A stretch of 22,032 bases of DNA from Escherichia coli (GTDB taxonomy: Bacteria; Pseudomonadota; Gammaproteobacteria; Enterobacterales; Enterobacteriaceae): NCBI RefSeq assembly GCF_003334255.1, contig NZ_QOWU01000068.1; one strand, given 5' to 3'. The notes beneath the pieces are model-generated. The model did no database searches. It was given only the letters and a program-made list of their open reading frames with translations, and had not been told where the DNA came from. A program made the translations under genes and the position numbers. Position 1 is the first letter of the stretch; the number at the start of each line of letters is the position of its first letter. This document shows positions 1-22,032 of this stretch, one piece after another.

Positions 1-9
1 ATATCCATA

Positions 10-1473
10 ATGAGTAAAAAGTTTACAATGACACTCCTGTCATCTTCTCTGGCCGGGCTTCTGGTGATGAGTGGTGGGGTGAGTGCGCAGGAAGAAAAAT
101 ACACAGTGCCGTATGCCATAGGTGAAGGTAAATGGGGGAATACCTATGAAGTTGTAAAGACAGGCGGTAATGGTAACTTCAGATACGAAGTAAAAGAGAA
201 AAACGGCAAGAAGAGGTCACTTTTCACATTTGATTCAAAAGGGGATGTAATAATCAATGGCAGTGGCATTACGTACACAATTCATGACGGTGCGCTGAAC
301 GATTTTGCTCAAACAGCTGAGAAAAAAAAGAATGGACAGTCTCAGTCGCACAGAATGACTGATAGCGTTGTTCGTGATGTATATAACAAAGTATACAGTC
401 TGCAGAGAACAAAAATTACAGGTTTCAGCGTCGAAGATGGGGAGAATGGGAAGGTTTCTCTGGGTAGCGATGCGAAAGCCTCTGGTGAGTTCTCAGTAGC
501 TGTTGGTAACGGTGCTAAGGCTACAGAAAAAGCGTCAACATCAGTGGGATCATGGTCTGCAGCACTAGGACGGCAAAGTGTGGCTTTAGGTGTGGGAACA
601 TATGCTTATGCAAATGCATCTACAGCCGCCGGAACAGCTGCTTATGTTGATGGTTCTGCTATTTATGGTACCGCTATAGGTAATTACGCAAAAGTGGATA
701 AAAATGCAACTGAAGGTGTTGCATTAGGAGCCAAAGCAATATCTGCACATAAAAACAGTGTGGCCTTAGGGGCAAACTCCCGAACCACTCGTGATAATGA
801 AGTTTACATTGGTTATGAAGAGGCTTCTGGTAAAGCATATAAAACCCGCACCCTTGGAGGATTGACTGATGGAACTCGCCCATCCGATGCAGCAACTGTT
901 CGTCAGGTTGATCGGGTAAAAGACAGTGTTGAGCAACTGGCTCAGGATACGAATACCCGCCTTGTAGTCGAAGCGAAAAAGTCTCGTGAATATACAGACT
1001 CCAGAACGACAGTTGGTGTGAACCCTGACGGAAAACTTACCCGTGCAGAAGGTGCGACTAAAACTATCGCCGTCAATGATGGTCTCGTTGCTCTGTCTGG
1101 CAGAACAGACCGTATTGATTATGCAGTTGGTAGCGTTGACCGCCGGGTTACTAAAAATACACAGGCTATTCAGTCCAATACTCGCCAGTTGCAGGAGCAT
1201 AATGCACGCCTGAACAGCCAGCAGCGTCAAATTCGTGAGAATCACGAAGAGATGAAGCGTGCAGCAGCACAGAGTGCAGCGCTGGCGGGGCTTTTCCAGC
1301 CGTACAGTGTGGGGAAATTCAACGCCACTGCTGCCCTGGGGGGGTACAGTGATAAACAGGCTGTTGCCGTGGGTGTTGGTTACCGTTTCAACGAGCAGAC
1401 CGCAGCGAAAGCGGGTATTGCAGCGAGTGATGGCGATGTGTCCTACAACATGGGCGTTAACTTCGAGTTTTAA
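10..1473 (+). CDS. Trimeric autotransporter adhesin, YadA/Eib-like (signal peptide, YadA-type head repeats, neck, coiled-coil stalk, C-terminal YadA membrane anchor)
   Basis: 487-aa ORF. N-terminus [29 protein letters not shown] looks like a Sec signal peptide. Repeated head motifs [10 protein letters not shown] / [10 protein letters not shown] / [15 protein letters not shown] / NSVALGANS. Neck-like [25 protein letters not shown]. Heptad-rich stalk ([33 protein letters not shown]). C-terminus [47 protein letters not shown] is a typical YadA anchor ending in F. The signal peptide resembles E. coli Eib proteins as far as I recall (unverified). Confidence 0.8.
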
Positions 1474-1497
1474 TTGCTGACAGTGACATGAAGCATG

Positions 1498-1530
1498 ACG
1501 GCAGGCGTGGAGTTTTGCCTGCCGTTTTTT
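1498..1530 (+). terminator. Rho-independent terminator immediately downstream of the adhesin gene
   Basis: 9-bp perfect stem ACGGCAGGC (1498-1506) / GCCTGCCGT (1517-1525), 10-nt loop, followed by a T-run (TTTTTT to 1530). Begins 25 nt after the adhesin stop codon. Confidence 0.6.
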
Positions 1531-1559
1531 CTCATGTGAGCATGAAACAGGTGACAGCG

Positions 1560-2033
1560 ATGAAAGTGATTCTGGCGACCCGCAACCGTTATCTGGAGTA
1601 TGGCCTGCAGCAGATGCTTGAGGGGTACAGGATAATACTGGCGAGGGAGTTTTTTACACCAGAGAACAGGAAGAGCGTACCGGCACATGATGAGTCATGG
1701 GTGATAATCTGTGATGCCCTCCTTGGCAGGCTGATGTGCTGCATGTTTCAGGGGCGCCGTTATCTTCAGATTGATGCGGAAGATGTTACGGGGCGCCTGG
1801 AGACGTACAGGAAAATCCGGAATGGTGAGTGGGTACATAATACGTATGCGCGACCACTGACGATGTCCGAGATGGTGGTGATGTTTGGATACGTGTACCG
1901 GGAGTCAAAGCCCTGCCATCTTGCCCGTGAAATGGGGATAAACACGAAGACGGTGAACACCTTTCTGTATCTGGGGCTTGGTAAAAACGGTCTTAAGTAC
2001 AGGAGTGTGAAGCACCTGGTTGGACGTGCGTAG
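1560..2033 (+). CDS. Putative small transcriptional regulator with C-terminal LuxR/GerE-type HTH
   Basis: ORF track gives 1488-2033. The start at 1488 lies inside the terminator hairpin and has no SD; ATG at 1560 (MKVILATRN...) has AGGTGA 5 nt upstream. C-terminal segment LTMSEMVVMFGYVYRESKPCHLAREMGINTKTVNTFLYLGLGKNGL matches the spacing of the LuxR/GerE HTH pattern (LT.RE.EVL ... S.KEIA..L.IS.KTV). N-terminal part has no recognisable receiver residues. Family assignment is by eye only. Confidence 0.45.
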   Translation: MKVILATRNRYLEYGLQQMLEGYRIILAREFFTPENRKSVPAHDESWVIICDALLGRLMCCMFQGRRYLQIDAEDVTGRLETYRKIRNGEWVHNTYARPLTMSEMVVMFGYVYRESKPCHLAREMGINTKTVNTFLYLGLGKNGLKYRSVKHLVGRA

Positions 2034-2210
2034 CCGGAATGCATATTCGTGAGTCGGGTAATGAGAGTTGAACGGTGGCAGTGAGAATGGAACAGAAAAA
2101 AATCAGATGCGGAAGGCGGAAATACACAGCGGGTGCGATGTGCTTCATGCTGTTTGTATGGCTGGGTGGTGTGGTGACATTCTGTGTGCTGGCCGCTCTG
2201 ATAATGCAGT

Positions 2211-2236
2211 AAAAAAAGGGGAGCTGGTGACTCCCC
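2211..2236 (-). terminator. Rho-independent terminator for minus-strand transcripts (YkgJ-like gene / serT read-through)
   Basis: Stem GGGGAG (2218-2223) / CTCCCC (2231-2236), 7-nt loop. The plus-strand A7 at 2211-2217 gives a U7 tail on the minus-strand RNA. Confidence 0.55.
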
Positions 2237-2390
2237 GTGCTGATGTCACTGGATAAACCAGTCGTCAGCGGTTTCCCAGGCTTCCGAGTCGGCAAAACTA
2301 GTTGACGTCTAATACCAGAGCCTGTAACTGTTTTTCGTCCATAAATTAACCTTCATTTGATGCTGGATTGAACATATCAAAATCAGGCAA

Positions 2391-2741
2391 TTACACAAAT
2401 CTATGTACAGGCTCTATTTCCGGAAGTCCGTATTTTGCCCGTGCGCGGCTACATGCTTCATTCGCGATGTCATTTTCGCCGGACATTGCGAATTCCCTGC
2501 ATGTGGACGGACGGTTTTTGTAAACAGAGCAATATGCGTTTTCACCCGGAGTTCCCGCCAGAGCGACACATCGGGGCTTTTTCTGATTGGTGCCGCTCAT
2601 ACAGCGATGAAAAGGAGATATTTGCTCAGTGAGAGTGGCCGGGACGTTTCCGCCAGCATCATCGGCTTCAGCCCAGTAAAAAGAGACGCGGAAAAATACA
2701 CAACAGGCACCACACGTCATGCATGGATTGGGGTTATTCAT
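2391..2741 (-). CDS. YkgJ/UPF0153-family putative zinc/iron-chelating protein (CxxCxxCC)
   Basis: 116-aa ORF. N-terminal motif [11 protein letters not shown] plus further Cys (CMSGT, CVALAG, CSVY, CREF) is typical of the YkgJ-type Cys-rich domain. Overlapping plus-strand ORFs 2403-2756 and 2435-2632 have no motifs. Start-codon context is weak. Confidence 0.65.
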
Positions 2742-2837
2742 AATTCATCGGTATAGCGATAAATCGTAAAGAGAACAATGTACCTAGTGTGTATTGAGCT
2801 AAATATACCAATTAGTATACCAAGTGTATACTAAGAG

Positions 2838-2870
2838 CAAAAAAGAAAGGGGCTACCATTTGGTAACCCC
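2838..2870 (-). terminator. serT intrinsic terminator
   Basis: Directly 3' of the tRNA. Minus-strand RNA GGGGUUACC-loop-GGUAGCCCC (includes one U-G wobble) followed by UUUCUUUUUU (plus-strand A-tract 2838-2848). Confidence 0.7.
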
Positions 2871-2879
2871 TTGATTATT

Positions 2880-2967
2880 TGGCGGAAGCGCAGAGATTCG
2901 AACTCTGGAACCCTTTCGGGTCGCCGGTTTTCAAGACCGGTGCCTTCAACCGCTCGGCCACACTTCC
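2880..2967 (-). tRNA. serT: tRNA-Ser (anticodon UGA)
   Basis: Reverse complement reads GGAAGTGTGGCCGAGCGGTTGAAGGCACCGGTCTTGAAAACCGGCGACCCGAAAGGGTTCCAGAGTTCGAATCTCTGCGCTTCCGCCA: 88 nt, long variable arm, anticodon loop CUUGAAA, encoded CCA end. Matches E. coli serT from memory. Confidence 0.95.
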
Positions 2968-2979
2968 GGAATGACGCGC

Positions 2980-3008
2980 ACTATAAACATCCCGATGCGG
3001 CGTGTAAA
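2980..3008 (-). promoter_or_regulatory. serT sigma70 promoter (-35 TTTACA, 17-bp spacer, -10 TATAGT, GC-rich discriminator)
   Basis: On the minus strand: TTTACA (3003-3008), 17-nt spacer, TATAGT (2980-2985), then GCGCGTC before the mature tRNA 5' end at 2967. A GC-rich discriminator is typical of stringently controlled stable-RNA promoters. Confidence 0.55.
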
Positions 3009-3009
3009 C

Positions 3010-3393
3010 CCCTAATTTGTTTGTTTGCCTGAAAAACAGCCAAAAGTGCATTGATAGCGTGAAATAACAGCAGATTGATCATTTCATCACCATGAATTCC
3101 TTCTCTTTTACTCGTTTAGCAACCGGCTAAACATCCCCACCGCCCGGCCAAAAGAAAAATAGGTCCATTTTTATCGCTAAAAGATAAATCCACACAGTTT
3201 GTATTGTTTTGTGCAAAAGTTTCACTACGCTTTATTAACAATACTTTCTGGCGACGTGCGCCAGTGCAGAAGGATGAGCTTTCGTTTTCAGCATCTCACG
3301 TGAAGCGATGGTTTGCCTTGCTACAGGGACGTCGCTTGCCGACCATAAGCGCCCGGTGTCCTGCCGGTGTCGCAAGGAGGAGAGACGTGCGAT
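3010..3393 (+). promoter_or_regulatory. hya operon promoter and 5' leader region (divergent from serT)
   Basis: About 380 bp of AT-rich non-coding sequence between the serT promoter and the hyaA start; SD AAGGAGGA at 3374-3381. Individual promoter and regulator sites are not resolved from sequence alone. Confidence 0.4.
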
Positions 3394-4512
3394 ATGAATA
3401 ACGAGGAAACATTTTACCAGGCCATGCGGCGTCAGGGCGTTACCCGGCGCAGCTTTCTCAAATATTGTAGTCTGGCTGCCACGTCGCTGGGATTAGGCGC
3501 GGGAATGGCACCAAAGATTGCCTGGGCGCTGGAGAACAAACCGCGCATTCCGGTGGTATGGATCCACGGTCTGGAATGCACCTGCTGTACCGAATCTTTT
3601 ATCCGCTCCGCTCACCCACTGGCGAAGGACGTCATCCTTTCCCTGATTTCCCTCGATTACGACGATACTTTGATGGCTGCCGCCGGAACCCAGGCGGAAG
3701 AAGTCTTTGAAGACATCATCACGCAATACAATGGCAAATATATCCTCGCAGTAGAAGGTAATCCGCCGCTGGGCGAGCAGGGGATGTTCTGTATCAGCAG
3801 CGGTCGACCGTTTATTGAGAAACTCAAACGTGCCGCTGCCGGAGCCAGCGCGATTATCGCCTGGGGAACCTGCGCGTCCTGGGGCTGCGTGCAGGCCGCG
3901 CGACCCAATCCGACGCAGGCAACGCCTATCGACAAAGTCATCACCGACAAACCCATTATCAAAGTACCTGGCTGCCCGCCGATCCCGGATGTGATGAGCG
4001 CCATCATTACTTACATGGTGACCTTTGATCGCTTGCCAGATGTCGACAGAATGGGCCGTCCGCTGATGTTCTATGGTCAGCGAATCCACGATAAATGCTA
4101 TCGCCGCGCCCACTTCGACGCCGGAGAGTTCGTCCAGAGTTGGGATGATGACGCTGCCCGCAAAGGTTACTGCCTGTACAAAATGGGCTGCAAAGGGCCT
4201 ACCACCTATAACGCCTGTTCCTCCACACGCTGGAATGATGGCGTTTCTTTCCCAATCCAGTCTGGTCACGGCTGCCTGGGCTGTGCGGAAAATGGTTTCT
4301 GGGATCGCGGTTCGTTCTACAGCCGCGTGGTCGATATTCCGCAAATGGGTACTCATTCCACCGCCGATACCGTCGGTTTAACCGCGCTTGGCGTGGTGGC
4401 AGCGGCTGTTGGTGTGCACGCAGTCGCCAGCGCCGTTGACCAGCGCAGACGTCATAACCAGCAACCTACAGAAACCGAACATCAGCCAGGCAATGAGGAT
4501 AAACAGGCATGA
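3394..4512 (+). CDS. hyaA: Hydrogenase-1 small subunit (NiFe hydrogenase, Tat signal)
   Basis: 372 aa from ATG 3394 (the ORF track starts at an upstream in-frame GTG). Twin-arginine motif RRSFLK, Cys clusters for FeS centres, C-terminal hydrophobic anchor. Matches E. coli HyaA from memory. Confidence 0.95.
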
Positions 4513-6302
4513 GCACTCAGTACGAAACTCAGGGATACACCATCAATAATGCCGGACGCCGCCTGGTGGTCGACCCGATTACGCGCATCGAAGGCCACAT
4601 GCGCTGCGAAGTGAATATTAACGATCAGAATGTGATCACCAATGCCGTCTCCTGCGGCACCATGTTTCGCGGGCTGGAGATCATCCTACAAGGGCGCGAC
4701 CCGCGCGATGCGTGGGCGTTCGTTGAACGTATCTGCGGCGTCTGTACTGGCGTACACGCCCTGGCTTCGGTTTACGCCATCGAAGATGCTATCGGTATTA
4801 AAGTGCCGGACAACGCCAATATCATCCGCAACATTATGCTGGCAACGCTCTGGTGCCACGATCATCTGGTGCACTTCTATCAGCTTGCCGGGATGGACTG
4901 GATCGATGTGTTAGATGCGCTGAAAGCCGACCCGCGGAAAACCTCCGAACTGGCGCAAAGTCTCTCCTCTTGGCCGAAATCATCCCCTGGCTATTTCTTC
5001 GACGTACAAAACCGCCTGAAAAAATTTGTTGAAGGCGGGCAGTTGGGGATCTTCCGCAATGGCTACTGGGGGCACCCGCAGTACAAACTGCCGCCAGAAG
5101 CTAACCTGATGGGCTTTGCCCACTATCTCGAAGCTCTCGATTTCCAGCGTGAAATTGTCAAAATCCACGCGGTCTTTGGCGGTAAAAACCCGCATCCAAA
5201 CTGGATTGTCGGCGGGATGCCTTGCGCCATCAACATTGACGAAAGCGGCGCGGTCGGGGCAGTCAATATGGAACGCCTGAACCTGGTGCAGTCAATTATC
5301 ACCCGCACGGCGGACTTCATTAACAACGTGATGATCCCCGACGCCTTAGCCATCGGTCAGTTCAACAAACCGTGGAGCGAAATCGGCACTGGTCTTTCTG
5401 ATAAATGCGTTCTCAGCTACGGCGCATTCCCGGATATTGCCAACGACTTTGGCGAGAAAAGTCTGCTGATGCCTGGCGGCGCGGTGATTAACGGCGACTT
5501 CAACAATGTGCTGCCAGTGGATTTGGTTGATCCGCAGCAGGTGCAGGAGTTTGTCGACCACGCCTGGTATCGATATCCCAACGATCAGGTCGGGCGTCAT
5601 CCGTTCGATGGCATCACCGACCCGTGGTACAACCCCGGCGATGTCAAAGGCAGCGATACCAACATTCAGCAGCTGAATGAACAGGAACGCTACTCGTGGA
5701 TCAAAGCGCCACGCTGGCGCGGTAACGCGATGGAAGTGGGGCCGCTGGCGCGCACGTTAATCGCTTATCACAAAGGCGATGCTGCGACCGTTGAGTCGGT
5801 CGATCGCATGATGTCGGCGTTGAACCTGCCGCTTTCCGGTATCCAGTCAACGTTAGGCCGCATTTTGTGCCGCGCGCACGAAGCGCAGTGGGCCGCAGGT
5901 AAGTTGCAGTATTTCTTCGACAAGCTGATGACCAACCTGAAAAACGGCAATCTCGCCACTGCTTCCACGGAAAAATGGGAACCTGCAACCTGGCCGACAG
6001 AGTGCCGTGGTGTCGGTTTTACCGAAGCGCCGCGCGGGGCGTTAGGCCACTGGGCCGCCATTCGCGATGGCAAGATTGATCTCTACCAGTGCGTGGTGCC
6101 GACCACCTGGAACGCCAGCCCGCGCGATCCCAAAGGGCAGATTGGCGCTTATGAAGCGGCGCTGATGAACACCAAAATGGCGATCCCCGAGCAACCGCTG
6201 GAGATCCTGCGTACTCTGCACAGCTTTGACCCGTGCCTCGCCTGTTCAACACACGTGCTGGGCGACGACGGTAGCGAGCTGATCTCCGTGCAGGTGCGTT
6301 AA
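4509..6302 (+). CDS. hyaB: Hydrogenase-1 large subunit
   Basis: 597 aa. N-terminal RIEGH and [11 protein letters not shown] motifs and C-terminal DPCLACSTH motif (NiFe ligands). Start overlaps the hyaA stop (ATGA). Confidence 0.95.
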
Positions 6303-6320
6303 CAGCGAAGGAGAATCATC

Positions 6321-7028
6321 ATGCAACAGAAAAGCGACAACGTTGTCAGCCACTATGTCTTTGAAGCGCCAGTGCGCATCTGGCACTGGTTGACGGTGTT
6401 ATGCATGGCGGTGTTGATGGTCACCGGATACTTTATCGGCAAGCCGCTACCTTCCGTCAGCGGCGAGGCGACGTATCTGTTCTATATGGGCTACATCAGG
6501 TTAATTCACTTCAGCGCCGGGATGGTTTTTACCGTGGTTTTGCTGATGCGGATCTACTGGGCTTTTGTTGGCAATCGATACTCCCGCGAGCTGTTTATCG
6601 TGCCGGTATGGCGTAAAAGCTGGTGGCAGGGCGTGTGGTATGAAATCCGCTGGTATCTGTTTCTGGCAAAACGTCCGAGTGCCGATATAGGCCATAATCC
6701 CATCGCCCAGGCGGCGATGTTCGGCTATTTCCTGATGTCGGTCTTTATGATCATCACTGGTTTTGCGCTGTACAGCGAACACAGCCAGTACGCTATTTTT
6801 GCGCCGTTCCGTTATGTGGTGGAATTTTTCTACTGGACGGGTGGCAACTCAATGGACATTCACAGCTGGCATCGGCTGGGGATGTGGCTGATTGGCGCGT
6901 TTGTGATCGGTCATGTCTACATGGCGCTGCGTGAAGACATCATGTCCGACGACACGGTGATCTCCACCATGGTCAACGGCTACCGTAGCCACAAATTTGG
7001 CAAAATAAGTAACAAGGAGCGTTCATGA
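6321..7028 (+). CDS. hyaC: Hydrogenase-1 cytochrome b subunit
   Basis: 235-aa polytopic membrane protein with conserved His; position and size match hyaC. Confidence 0.93.
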
Positions 7029-7612
7029 GCGAGCAACGCGTGGTGGTCATGGGGCTGGGCAACCTGCTGTGGGCCGATGAAGGCTTCGGCGTGCGGGTGG
7101 CGGAACGGCTGTATGCCCATTACCACTGGCCCGAGTATGTGGAGATTGTCGATGGCGGTACTCAGGGACTGAACTTGCTGGGGTATGTCGAAAGCGCCAG
7201 CCATCTGTTGATTCTCGATGCCATTGACTACGGGCTGGAACCTGGAACGCTGCGAACCTATGCCGGAGAACGCATTCCGGCTTATCTCAGCGCGAAGAAA
7301 ATGAGCCTGCATCAGAACAGTTTCTCCGAAGTGTTGGCGCTGGCGGATATCCGCGGACATCTGCCAGCACATATTGCCCTCGTCGGTCTGCAACCCGCAA
7401 TGCTCGACGACTACGGCGGTAGCCTGAGCGAACTGGCACGGGAGCAACTGCCCGCTGCGGAACAGGCGGCGCTGGCGCAGCTTGCTGCGTGGGGAATTGT
7501 GCCGCAACCGGCTAATGAATCGCGCTGTCTCAATTATGACTGTCTGTCGATGGAAAATTACGAAGGCGTTCGCTTGCGCCAGTACCGGATGACACAGGAG
7601 GAGCAGGGATGA
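7025..7612 (+). CDS. hyaD: Hydrogenase-1 maturation endopeptidase
   Basis: 195 aa, N-terminus [17 protein letters not shown] is typical of HyaD/HybD/HycI proteases; 4-nt overlap with hyaC. Confidence 0.93.
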
Positions 7613-8007
7613 GCAACGACACGCCATTTGATGCGTTGTGGCAACGAATGCTGGCGCGCGGCTGGACGCCAGTCAGTGAATCCCGTCTTGACGACTGGCT
7701 TACGCAAGCGCCAGACGGCGTGGTGTTATTAAGCAGTGACCCGAAACGCACGCCAGAGGTCAGCGATAATCCGGTAATGATTGGCGAATTACTGCGCGAG
7801 TTTCCCGACTATACATGGCAGGTGGCGATTGCTGACCTTGAGCAGAGCGAAGCCATCGGCGATCGCTTTGGCGTCTTTCGCTTTCCTGCCACTTTAGTGT
7901 TTACCGGCGGAAACTATCGCGGCGTGCTGAATGGTATTCACCCGTGGGCGGAACTGATAAACCTGATGCGCGGGCTTGTCGAACCGCAGCAGGAGCGTGC
8001 CTCATGA
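7609..8007 (+). CDS. hyaE: Hydrogenase-1 operon protein HyaE (chaperone-like)
   Basis: 132 aa, synteny and size; 4-nt overlap with hyaD. Confidence 0.9.
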
Positions 8008-8861
8008 GCGAAACTTTTTTCCATCTGCTGGGGCCAGGAACGCAACCGAACGATGACAGTTTCAGCATGAATCCACTGCCGATCACCTGTCAGGTGAATG
8101 ATGAACCGAGTATGGCGGCCCTGGAGCAATGTGCTCACAGCCCGCAGGTGATTGCGCTGTTAAACGAGTTACAACATCAACTAAGCGAACGCCAACCGCC
8201 GTTGGGCGAGGTGCTGGCAGTCGATCTGTTAAATCTCAACGCCGACGATCGTCACTTTATCAATACGCTTCTCGGGGAAGGGGAAGTGTCAGTGCGCATT
8301 CAGCAGGCTGACGACAGTGAAAGTGAAATACAGGAGGCGATCTTCTGCGGATTATGGCGGGTGCGCAGACGTCGCGGCGAAAAGTTGCTGGAGGACAAAC
8401 TGGAGGCTGGCTGCGCGCCGCTGGCGTTGTGGCAGGCGGCAACGCAAAATCTCTTGCCGACAGATTCGCTGTTACCGCCGCCCATTGATGGCCTGATGAA
8501 TGGCCTACCGTTGGCGCATGAGTTACTGGCACATGTACGTAACCCCGACGCGCAGCCGCACAGCATTAATCTGACGCAATTACCCATCAGCGAGGCTGAT
8601 CGGCTTTTTCTCTCACGTCTCTGTGGGCCGGGAAATATTCAGATTCGTACCATTGGCTATGGCGAGAGCTATATCAACGCCACGGGGTTACGCCATGTCT
8701 GGCATTTACGCTGTACGGACACCTTAAAAGGCCCGTTACTGGAAAGTTATGAAATCTGCCCAATACCGGAAGTGGTGCTGGCAGCGCCAGAAGATTTGGT
8801 CGACTCTGCGCAGCGGCTTAGCGAGGTATGTCAGTGGCTGGCGGAAGCTGCACCGACGTAA
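8004..8861 (+). CDS. hyaF: Hydrogenase-1 operon protein HyaF
   Basis: 285 aa from ATG 8004 ([11 protein letters not shown]), overlapping the hyaE stop. The ORF track extends to an upstream in-frame ATG at 7944 inside hyaE, which is unlikely to be used. Confidence 0.9.
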
Positions 8862-8994
8862 AAAGACGGTAAGTATCGCTTTCAGTCTTATGAATATCGC
8901 AATCGGCGAATACCTCTGGTCGTAGAGTTTCAGGATAAAGAGGGAGATCTACCATTATCGGGTTATTTTTCTCTCTTCGCCTACAGGAGTGCGC
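8862..8994 (+). promoter_or_regulatory. hyaF-appC intergenic region (app operon promoter region)
   Basis: 133-bp non-coding gap with SD AGGAG 5 nt before the appC ATG. In E. coli the app genes have their own promoter in this gap (established knowledge); exact elements not resolved here. Confidence 0.35.
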
Positions 8995-20693: not shown

Positions 20694-20999
20694 TTAGCGT
20701 GTAGTGGACGTGGTGGTTGAGGTGTTATGAGAACCGCCATCGCCACTGTCATTTGCTGCAACAACTGCCAACGTCGCCACACCAACAGCCGTTGCCACAC
20801 CGACAACTGTCGCCGTGCCGACAGCGCCAGCAGCCACGCCACCAGTGGTAGTAGCAGTCGTGGTTGCGCCGGTAGTGGTCGTTGTGGTGCCAGTAGTACC
20901 CGTCGTTGCCTCGGTCCCGTTTGTTGCTTCAGGGGCAGCAAACGCAGCTGGCGTCGTCAACATGAAGGCCATAAGGATTGCAGAAAGCTTGTGTTTCAT
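20694..20999 (-). CDS. gfcA: Threonine-rich group-4 capsule protein (YjbE-like)
   Basis: 101 aa from ATG at 20997-20999 (MKHKLSAILMAFMLTTPAAFA signal peptide), followed by a Thr/Gly/Ala/Val low-complexity tract. The ORF track extends 6 codons upstream. Confidence 0.88.
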   Translation of the reverse strand: MKHKLSAILMAFMLTTPAAFAAPEATNGTEATTGTTGTTTTTTGATTTATTTGGVAAGAVGTATVVGVATAVGVATLAVVAANDSGDGGSHNTSTTTSTTR

Positions 21000-21440
21000 A
21001 ACTTTTCCTTTATTCATCGCATGGACAATACGTACGCTTGAGATCAGGATTGTCTACTTTGAGTATAACATCCTTGTGAAATCTCCCTTTCCTCATACCG
21101 CTTGCACTATATACTGCGGGTAGGAAAGGCGCGCAGAGGGAAATATAAGATTGTTAACTATCCCCCTCTGGAAATACGACTTGTGAGCATAAGATAAATC
21201 TTAGCAAAATACAAATTAAAGATAAGGAAATTGTTACGAAAGCTATTAATTATTGTTGGTAATATAGTTTCAAGTGGTACTATAACTGGCTGTTAAATGG
21301 CATTTATAACTATTAGGTGCAGAGATATTCGCTTAAATGGATTAGTTTCTTTGTGGAAAAGTAACTGATGTTATAATGTATGATGTTGACTATTGCACTA
21401 TTCCAATAAAACCAGTCAGCTTTAAACAAGCAGCGTCATA
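21000..21440 (-). promoter_or_regulatory. gfc operon promoter / upstream regulatory region (AT-rich), also the cspH 3' flank
   Basis: About 440 bp of markedly AT-rich non-coding DNA upstream of gfcA with no IS sequence in it; contains inverted repeats CAGAGGG...CCCTCTG (about 21150-21187). Confidence 0.4.
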
Positions 21441-21653
21441 TTAAGAGAGATAAACATTTGCCGCTGTTGGTCCTCGCAGGCCATTTACGCGGCAAAATTC
21501 CACACGTAATCCTGGTATAAGCACTTCTGCGTCGCGGGGAGTGAATGCGGAAATATGGACCTGAACTTCTTTACGACCGTCGGAGGGGATAATGAATCCT
21601 TTGCCGCTTTTGCGATCAAAGGTTTTGACAATTCCTGTCATTTTACGGGACAA
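21441..21653 (-). CDS. cspH: Cold-shock-like protein CspH
   Basis: 70-aa cold-shock-domain protein ([26 protein letters not shown]...). The first codon in this sequence is TTG (plus-strand caa at 21651-21653), with SD AAGGA 6 nt upstream. Confidence 0.88.
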
Positions 21654-21938
21654 ACAAATTCCTTACTGAAAATACTGCGCTGCACTATACGGGGTTAATA
21701 AAATAAAGCCAGCGATATTTAAGACCGCCGGACGGCTAAAATAAAATTTGCTTAATCTCAATTATCATGCGTTAATAGCTGCGTCGGTTTGAAAGACAGA
21801 CAGCATACAAAGTAGTTTACTAAAGCAGTTCTCATTATCAGGCATTATCCCCTTCTTTTGAGTCTCTCTCCTGAACACTAAGTAGTTTCTGTATTAAAGC
21901 CCTGTTTGCCGAAAGGCCCAAAATGAAGGAAGTAAAAT

Positions 21939-21955
21939 ATGTCTAATAAAATGAC
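21939..21955 (+). pseudogene. cspG: cspG 5' fragment (first 17 nt, MSNKMT), interrupted by IS1
   Basis: ATGTCTAATAAAATGAC encodes M-S-N-K-M-T, the cold-shock protein N-terminus, divergent from cspH as cspG is in E. coli. The reading frame then runs straight into the IS1 terminal repeat and stops after 7 IS1-derived codons. Confidence 0.6.
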
Positions 21956-22032
21956 GGTGATGCTGCCAACTTACTGATTTAGTGTATGATGGTGTTTTTG
22001 AGGTGCTCCAGTGGCTTCTGTTTCTATCAGCT
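21956..22032 (+). mobile_element. IS1 insertion sequence, left (insA-proximal) end, truncated by the window edge
   Basis: GGTGATGCTGCCAACTTACTGATTTAGTGTATGATGGTGTTTTTGAGGTGCTCCAGTGGCTTCTGTTTCTATCAGCT matches the IS1 terminal inverted repeat and the start of insA (GTG GCT TCT GTT TCT ATC AGC = M/V-A-S-V-S-I-S) as I recall it. Junction position is ambiguous by 1-2 nt. Confidence 0.9.

Follow-up and report, generated by a model that had tools for sequence, protein, structure and literature searches.

Genes of the locus

The stretch of DNA analysed here (the window, 22,032 nucleotides from Escherichia coli) carries seven co-oriented genes, gfcA-gfcB-gfcC-gfcD-gfcE-etp-etk, on the minus strand at 13285-20999, flanked by appA and cspH. 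The first gene of the operon is gfcA (20694-20999), which encodes a threonine-rich inner-membrane protein of 101 amino acids. It is followed by gfcB (19943-20587; a lipoprotein of 214 amino acids with a GTG start), gfcC (19200-19946; 248 amino acids) and gfcD (17104-19200; 698 amino acids), a member of the YjbH family, which Pfam also records for the gfcD equivalent in related loci. The remaining three genes form a Wza/Wzb/Wzc-type trio, and the products of all three score above curated NCBIfam cut-offs. gfcE (15919-17058) encodes a Wza-like outer-membrane polysaccharide export protein of 379 amino acids (NF011658: 703 bits, cut-off 333), etp (15485-15931) a low-molecular-weight phosphotyrosine phosphatase of 148 amino acids (NF008486: 333.8 bits, cut-off 247), and etk (13285-15465) a BY-type protein-tyrosine kinase of 726 amino acids (NF007350: 1595.6 bits, cut-off 1248). 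All seven are read from the minus strand. appA ends at 13170, and on the other side cspH (21441-21653, minus strand, 70 amino acids) is an intact upstream neighbour, placed and annotated as it is in K-12 and in EPEC.

A preliminary description of this DNA, made from the letters alone, had taken all seven genes to be full length, and they are: none of the seven open reading frames contains an internal stop, and each protein is as long as its counterpart in K-12 and EPEC. The proteins are 100% identical to those of K-12 MG1655 (Etk to NP_415501.1) and 96-100% identical to those of EPEC E2348/69. Etp and GfcE are identical in EPEC as well; for the other five products the matching columns of the EPEC alignment are 725/727 for Etk (the stop codon counted), 694/699 for GfcD, 245/249 for GfcC, 213/215 for GfcB and 98/102 for GfcA. 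In S. flexneri 2a a deletion of 14 bases inactivates etk (PMC4368438); as Etk is full length here, the window does not have this lesion. The part of PMC4368438 that cites Peleg 2005 reports all seven gfc products as necessary in EPEC.

At its other end the window begins (1-2967) in the end of a lambdoid prophage adjoining tRNA-Ser(tga), serT, at 2880-2967. This prophage end holds a gene for a YadA-like protein of 487 amino acids (10-1473), a 181-aa open reading frame (1488-2033) for which related genomes annotate a 157-aa hypothetical protein from an internal start, and a YkgJ-family gene (2391-2741, minus strand). K-12 and EPEC have tusE and yccA where the window has the prophage end, and among complete genomes the prophage-end/serT arrangement is restricted to a few. 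Of public sequences, contig UGDE01000001.1 of GCA_900449675.1 comes nearest to window 1-11473; it shows 0 mismatches and 5 gaps of one base each, which are typical long-read indels. Among complete genomes that span the window from end to end, JE86-ST05 is the most similar (99.4% identity). The annotation of JE86-ST05 gives gfcE an internal stop and hyaA a frameshift; an uninterrupted promoter is therefore no guarantee of an intact operon in related strains.

The spacer upstream of gfcA and the K-12 IS1D allele

The spacer between gfcA and cspH, the uninterrupted gfc regulatory region, is 441 bp long (21000-21440, minus strand) and has a GC content of 35.1%, against 51.5% for the window as a whole. 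IS1-like sequence occurs in the window at 21956-22032 only and nowhere inside 21000-21440. No mobile element and no indel interrupts the DNA from the start of gfcA to the stop of cspH, which makes this a wild-type allele, and the earlier account of continuous AT-rich DNA free of IS1 upstream of gfcA was accurate.

The spacer was aligned with that of K-12 by BLAST against NC_000913.3. In that genome IS1D, 768 bp long, occupies 1049778-1050545, 33 bp upstream of the gfcA start codon, with GACAATACG on both sides. Window 11255-21032 (9,778 bases, 3 mismatches) runs up to the left edge of IS1D, and window 21024-21958 picks up from its right edge. The two pieces overlap by exactly nine bases, and these nine bases are GACAATACG. 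They stand as a single copy at 21024-21032, 25-33 nt before the gfcA start codon. Since the motif occurs once in the window and twice around IS1D, the target site in the window is exactly empty, and K-12 is not identical here. The K-12-type gfc::IS1D allele, an IS1 between duplicated copies of the motif, is absent. Put the other way round, the K-12 spacer without IS1D and without one of the two target copies equals that of the window except for one substitution at 21395.

The preliminary description had also placed an IS1 in the gfc promoter region of K-12. The position of IS1D just before the gfcA ATG agrees with this, as do published accounts that place the K-12 IS1 in the gfc/ymc promoter (PMC2516531, PMC12428005). 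The proposed contrast with K-12 survived the alignment, with the IS1D insertion and one base as the differences. Silencing of gfc in K-12 is not absolute, as etk-dependent phenotypes exist in K-12 (PMC2516531).

An IS1 end in cspG

The one piece of IS1 in the window lies beyond cspH. The first 17 nt of cspG (21939-21955, plus strand) are followed directly by the left end of an IS1 (21956-22032, plus strand), comprising the terminal inverted repeat, the insA promoter and the insA start, after which the element runs off the window. The truncated reading frame gives MSNKM(T) and then IS1, where K-12 reads on as MSNKMTGLVK. A 76-nt pattern of the IS1 left end matches exactly at 21956-22031, and all 77 nt are 100% identical to the IS1 copies in strains PSJ-36, CH4797 and SZQ1, which are consensus-type IS1. 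Position 50 of the window IS1 is G; in K-12 IS1D it is T. A promoter scan of this IS1 end returned CTGCCA-16-TATGAT at 21963-21990, and the same hexamer pair is listed for the insA4 (IS1D) side of the K-12 gfcA-insA4 spacer (PMC3946193).

This insertion breaks cspG at codon 6, 957 bp upstream of gfcA. Because it lies beyond cspH and its insA reads rightwards, away from gfc, it disrupts cspG but would be expected to have no effect on gfc. The preliminary description had overlooked it; the element begins just beyond the region then considered. The cspG::IS1 junction was found in 0 of 5,426 complete E. coli genomes. SCU-176 was considered as a carrier and rejected, as its IS1 sits in the cspG 5' UTR. 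The Rfam cspA thermoregulator has a partial match in the cspG 5' UTR at 21783-22032 (plus strand), with 19.3 bits against a gathering score of 78; the match crosses the IS1 junction, and its 3' end is cut off at the window end.

Frequency of the uninterrupted allele

The same 5,426 complete genomes were searched with a 471-bp query (window 20985-21455). The spacer is present in 3,718 of them, and in 3,481 of these carriers at least 80% of the query is found in one piece. The K-12 junction occurs in 416 of the 5,426 genomes; this allele still covers 92% of the query, so that these genomes are counted within the 3,481 and have to be subtracted. An uninterrupted spacer is thus present in about 3,050 genomes, or 82% of carriers and about 56% of all complete genomes. 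In a spread sample of 60 carriers taken evenly down the ranking, 49 had the query at full length in one piece and 15, about a quarter, were 100% identical to the window over 20985-21455. The window allele occurs in STEC, ETEC, animal and environmental isolates. In about 1,700 complete genomes (about 31%), for example ST131 EC958 and Nissle, the whole gfc operon is absent and cspH adjoins appA.

The spacer in the window is the common wild-type allele and not an unusual one. The preliminary description was right that the sequence differs from K-12, but the rarity that it implied is misleading: among gfc-bearing E. coli the uninterrupted state is the majority. Earlier work had already established the gfc operon, the IS1 that disrupts it in K-12, and the fact that pathogenic E. 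coli and many others have it intact. The counts given here serve as a baseline for how often the gfc locus is intact, IS-disrupted or deleted.

A conserved block next to gfcA

Six sequences were aligned across the cspH-gfcA region: the window, EPEC, O157, the blood isolate AHB4, Escherichia sp. MOD1-EC7003 (about 89% identity) and E. albertii (about 80%). Conservation is concentrated on the side of gfcA. In the proximal 225 bp the invariant fraction per 25 nt is 0.64-1.00, against 0.32-0.68 farther upstream, and the 57 nt preceding the gfcA ATG are identical in all six sequences. We infer that this proximal block (21000-21225, minus strand) is a candidate promoter followed by a structured leader. 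For the proximal 196 nt the predicted folding energy is -57.4 kcal/mol (z = -3.96 relative to shuffled sequences), and the consensus fold of the leader retains two hairpins (21169-21133 and 21128-21085); with EPEC, O157, Escherichia sp. and E. albertii as the comparison set, a compensatory change is seen in 1 of 52 pairs, among sequences that vary very little. From these folding predictions a structured gfcA leader seems plausible. A search of Rfam at E <= 1 returned no family match in the gfcA leader, and the DNA upstream of the gfcB homologues of Cedecea and Citrobacter shows nothing alignable to it. A GCGGTA motif resembling ops/JUMPstart was noticed in the leader and dropped, as it is not conserved in EPEC.

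A consensus scan found no sigma-70 match of at least 9/12 on the gfc strand of the spacer, and a relaxed scan of that strand gave scattered matches, the best of them 8/12. These weak matches suggest a weak, regulated gfc promoter. One weak candidate, read from the alignment, lies in the invariant block on the minus strand: TTGTAT at 21214-21209, a 17-nt spacer and TATGCT at 21191-21186. No mapped gfc transcription start was found in the full texts that were searched for gfc regulation.

A second line of evidence on the position of the promoter comes from S. sonnei, where a clone of the g4c operon restored the capsule 'with its own promoter' (PMC4368438). The binding site of the distal primer of this clone, SalI.COMPLcps.3'.R, is matched exactly at 21271-21292 (minus strand), and a sufficient promoter should therefore lie within 293 bp of the gfcA ATG. 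From this primer site down to gfcA the DNA is continuous, and the window wholly contains the complementing stretch. The location of the promoter is thus deduced from conservation and from one plasmid complementation clone, in which read-through from the vector is possible.

Insertion sequences in the spacer of other strains

The spacer is interrupted in other genomes at nine independent sites, by eight IS1 and one ISKpn26, in both orientations. In window coordinates, and beginning nearest to gfcA, these are IS1D in K-12 (21024-32), an inverted IS1 in strain 64 (21047-54), IS1 in PSJ-36 (21127-36) and in H9Ecoli (21156-63), an IS1 at 21177 in PSS-13, where gfcA through the 5' part of etk has been lost, a divergent IS1 in E66 (21193-201), ISKpn26 in PK6 (21200-04), and IS1 in SZQ1 (21225-33) and in CH4797 (21283-95). 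None of the insertions of the other strains, which span 21047-21295, is present in the window. The idea that all sites fall between promoter and gfcA, and so locate the promoter, was refuted by the two most distal ones, 21225-33 and 21283-95.

Insertion sequences prefer AT-rich, H-NS-bound DNA, as was shown for elements of the IS5 family (PMC11335895). By analogy, such a preference would be sufficient to explain the hot spot, and selection for loss of the capsule is a possible cause as well. A bolder reading joins the two observations: the proximal 225 bp may be an undescribed cis-regulatory leader RNA, or a constrained operator, that controls the group 4 capsule, and the spacer may be a natural IS1 hot spot at which the capsule is switched off in commensals. 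We regard this as a speculative and rather unlikely proposal. If it were true, the window would provide a clean reference copy of the gfc cis-regulatory element. The ultra-conserved, well-folding leader and the recurrent targeting of the spacer by insertion sequences are the only threads here with some novelty, and it is mild.

Consequences for capsule export

The reading that we prefer, with a probability of roughly 0.9, is that 21000-21440 is an ordinary ancestral spacer upstream of an operon that is competent for export, given a Wzy-dependent O antigen and a promoter that is switched on. The conserved 225 bp beside gfcA, inside the 293 bp defined by the S. sonnei clone, would hold both the promoter and a structured leader some 180 nt long. 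In K-12, IS1D would cut this promoter and leader off from the operon, and in the window the operon would stay joined to them. The strain could then export O antigen as a capsule if it makes a Wzy-dependent O antigen, and export would further need the weak, AT-rich and probably regulated promoter to be turned on.

The preliminary description had suggested that the strain may express a group 4 capsule. The operon is complete and its promoter region unbroken, which supports this as far as it goes, but the evidence is permissive only. In EHEC, where the spacer is equally intact, there is about 30-fold less gfcA mRNA than in EPEC, and no capsule is visible in N-minimal medium (PMC3853201). The group 4 capsule also requires Wzy-dependent O-antigen genes (PMC4368438), and the rfb/wb* O-antigen region falls outside the 22-kb window. 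Given the low gfcA mRNA of EHEC, the weak sigma-70 matches and the absence of the O-antigen genes from the window, an intact spacer is not proof of a capsule. As judged from the genes present, the defensible statement is that the strain would be genetically competent for group 4 capsule export and is not demonstrably capsulate, and in annotation it is best recorded as competent for export, not as capsule-positive.

The chief competitor to this functional reading, which leaves the structural one untouched, is an operon that is intact but silent, so that no group 4 capsule is made under ordinary conditions. Possible causes would be H-NS-type silencing of the AT-rich spacer, a missing activator or a rough (O-antigen-negative) background. 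We give this almost an even chance. EHEC provides a precedent, and the low GC content of the spacer, the weakness of its promoter matches and the lack of O-antigen genes within the window all fit a silent operon; so does the near identity of the locus to that of K-12, a commensal-type lineage. On the other hand, S. sonnei and EPEC express a capsule from the same architecture (PMC4368438, PMC3853201), and the gfcA-proximal block is intact and strongly conserved, which argues for use. The repeated IS knock-outs in other strains fit an allele with an effect worth losing, although the target preference of insertion sequences explains them equally well.

The remaining alternatives concern the origin of the empty site. 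The window could descend from a K-12-like ancestor by precise excision of IS1D, in which case the allele would be a revertant and not ancestral. Over 10.7 kb the window and MG1655 differ by just 4 substitutions, and the one copy of GACAATACG is what precise excision would leave, but a site that was never occupied likewise shows a single copy. Moreover, the identical uninterrupted sequence of about a quarter of carriers, STEC, ETEC and animal isolates among them, weighs against excision, as does the non-K-12 content of the window, namely the prophage end with its YadA-like gene (1-2415) and the IS1 in cspG. IS1D is also nearly immobile (PMC12428005), and together these points make an excision highly improbable. 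An assembly artefact, in which the strain has an IS in the spacer and the assembler bridged its flanks, is scarcely credible: the window does break off after the first 77 nt of an IS1, much as contigs from short reads end at repeats, and its source is probably a draft, but an assembler that halted at the cspG IS1 would presumably have halted at a spacer IS1 too, at 21024-21032 the target stands cleanly in one copy, and every base of the spacer agrees with that in hundreds of closed genomes. The ordinary ancestral spacer accordingly remains our reading of 21000-21440.

Comparison with known systems

The gfc locus of K-12 MG1655 (b0981-b0988) encodes proteins identical to those of the window, with 3 synonymous differences in 9.8 kb and 1 difference in the spacer. 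It differs in having IS1D and the duplicated GACAATACG, in place of which the window has an IS1 of another sequence type in cspG. A further lesion, distinct from IS1D, is found in E. coli B (B-LamR), where a 23-bp deletion within the conserved block, corresponding to window 21179-21201, takes out the -10 of the weak candidate promoter. In the IS-disrupted natural alleles of strains 64, PSJ-36, H9Ecoli, PSS-13, E66, PK6, SZQ1 and CH4797, the flanking spacer is 99-100% identical to that of the window.

EPEC O127:H6 E2348/69 is the strain in which the gfc operon was defined (Peleg et al. 2005, in the passages of PMC3366997 and PMC8592465 that cite it). It shares with the window the seven genes and their order, the appA and cspH flanks, the protein lengths and an IS-free spacer of the same 441 bp. 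The two spacers differ by 26 substitutions, mostly in the distal half, and 0 indels; these substitutions could alter regulation. The spacer of O157:H7 TW14359 likewise has the same 441 bp and 0 indels. The g4c operon of S. sonnei 53G/046 (Caboni et al. 2015, PMC4368438), which was shown to produce an O-antigen capsule, shares the cspH and appA flanks and the primer sites, at which alone its likeness to the window was measured; as read from the sequence, the primers used to delete the operon (PMC4368438) match the window too. The comparison with EPEC that the preliminary description proposed thus reveals no deletion or other lesion relative to working gfc loci, whether EPEC or the complementing fragment of S. 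sonnei is taken as the reference.
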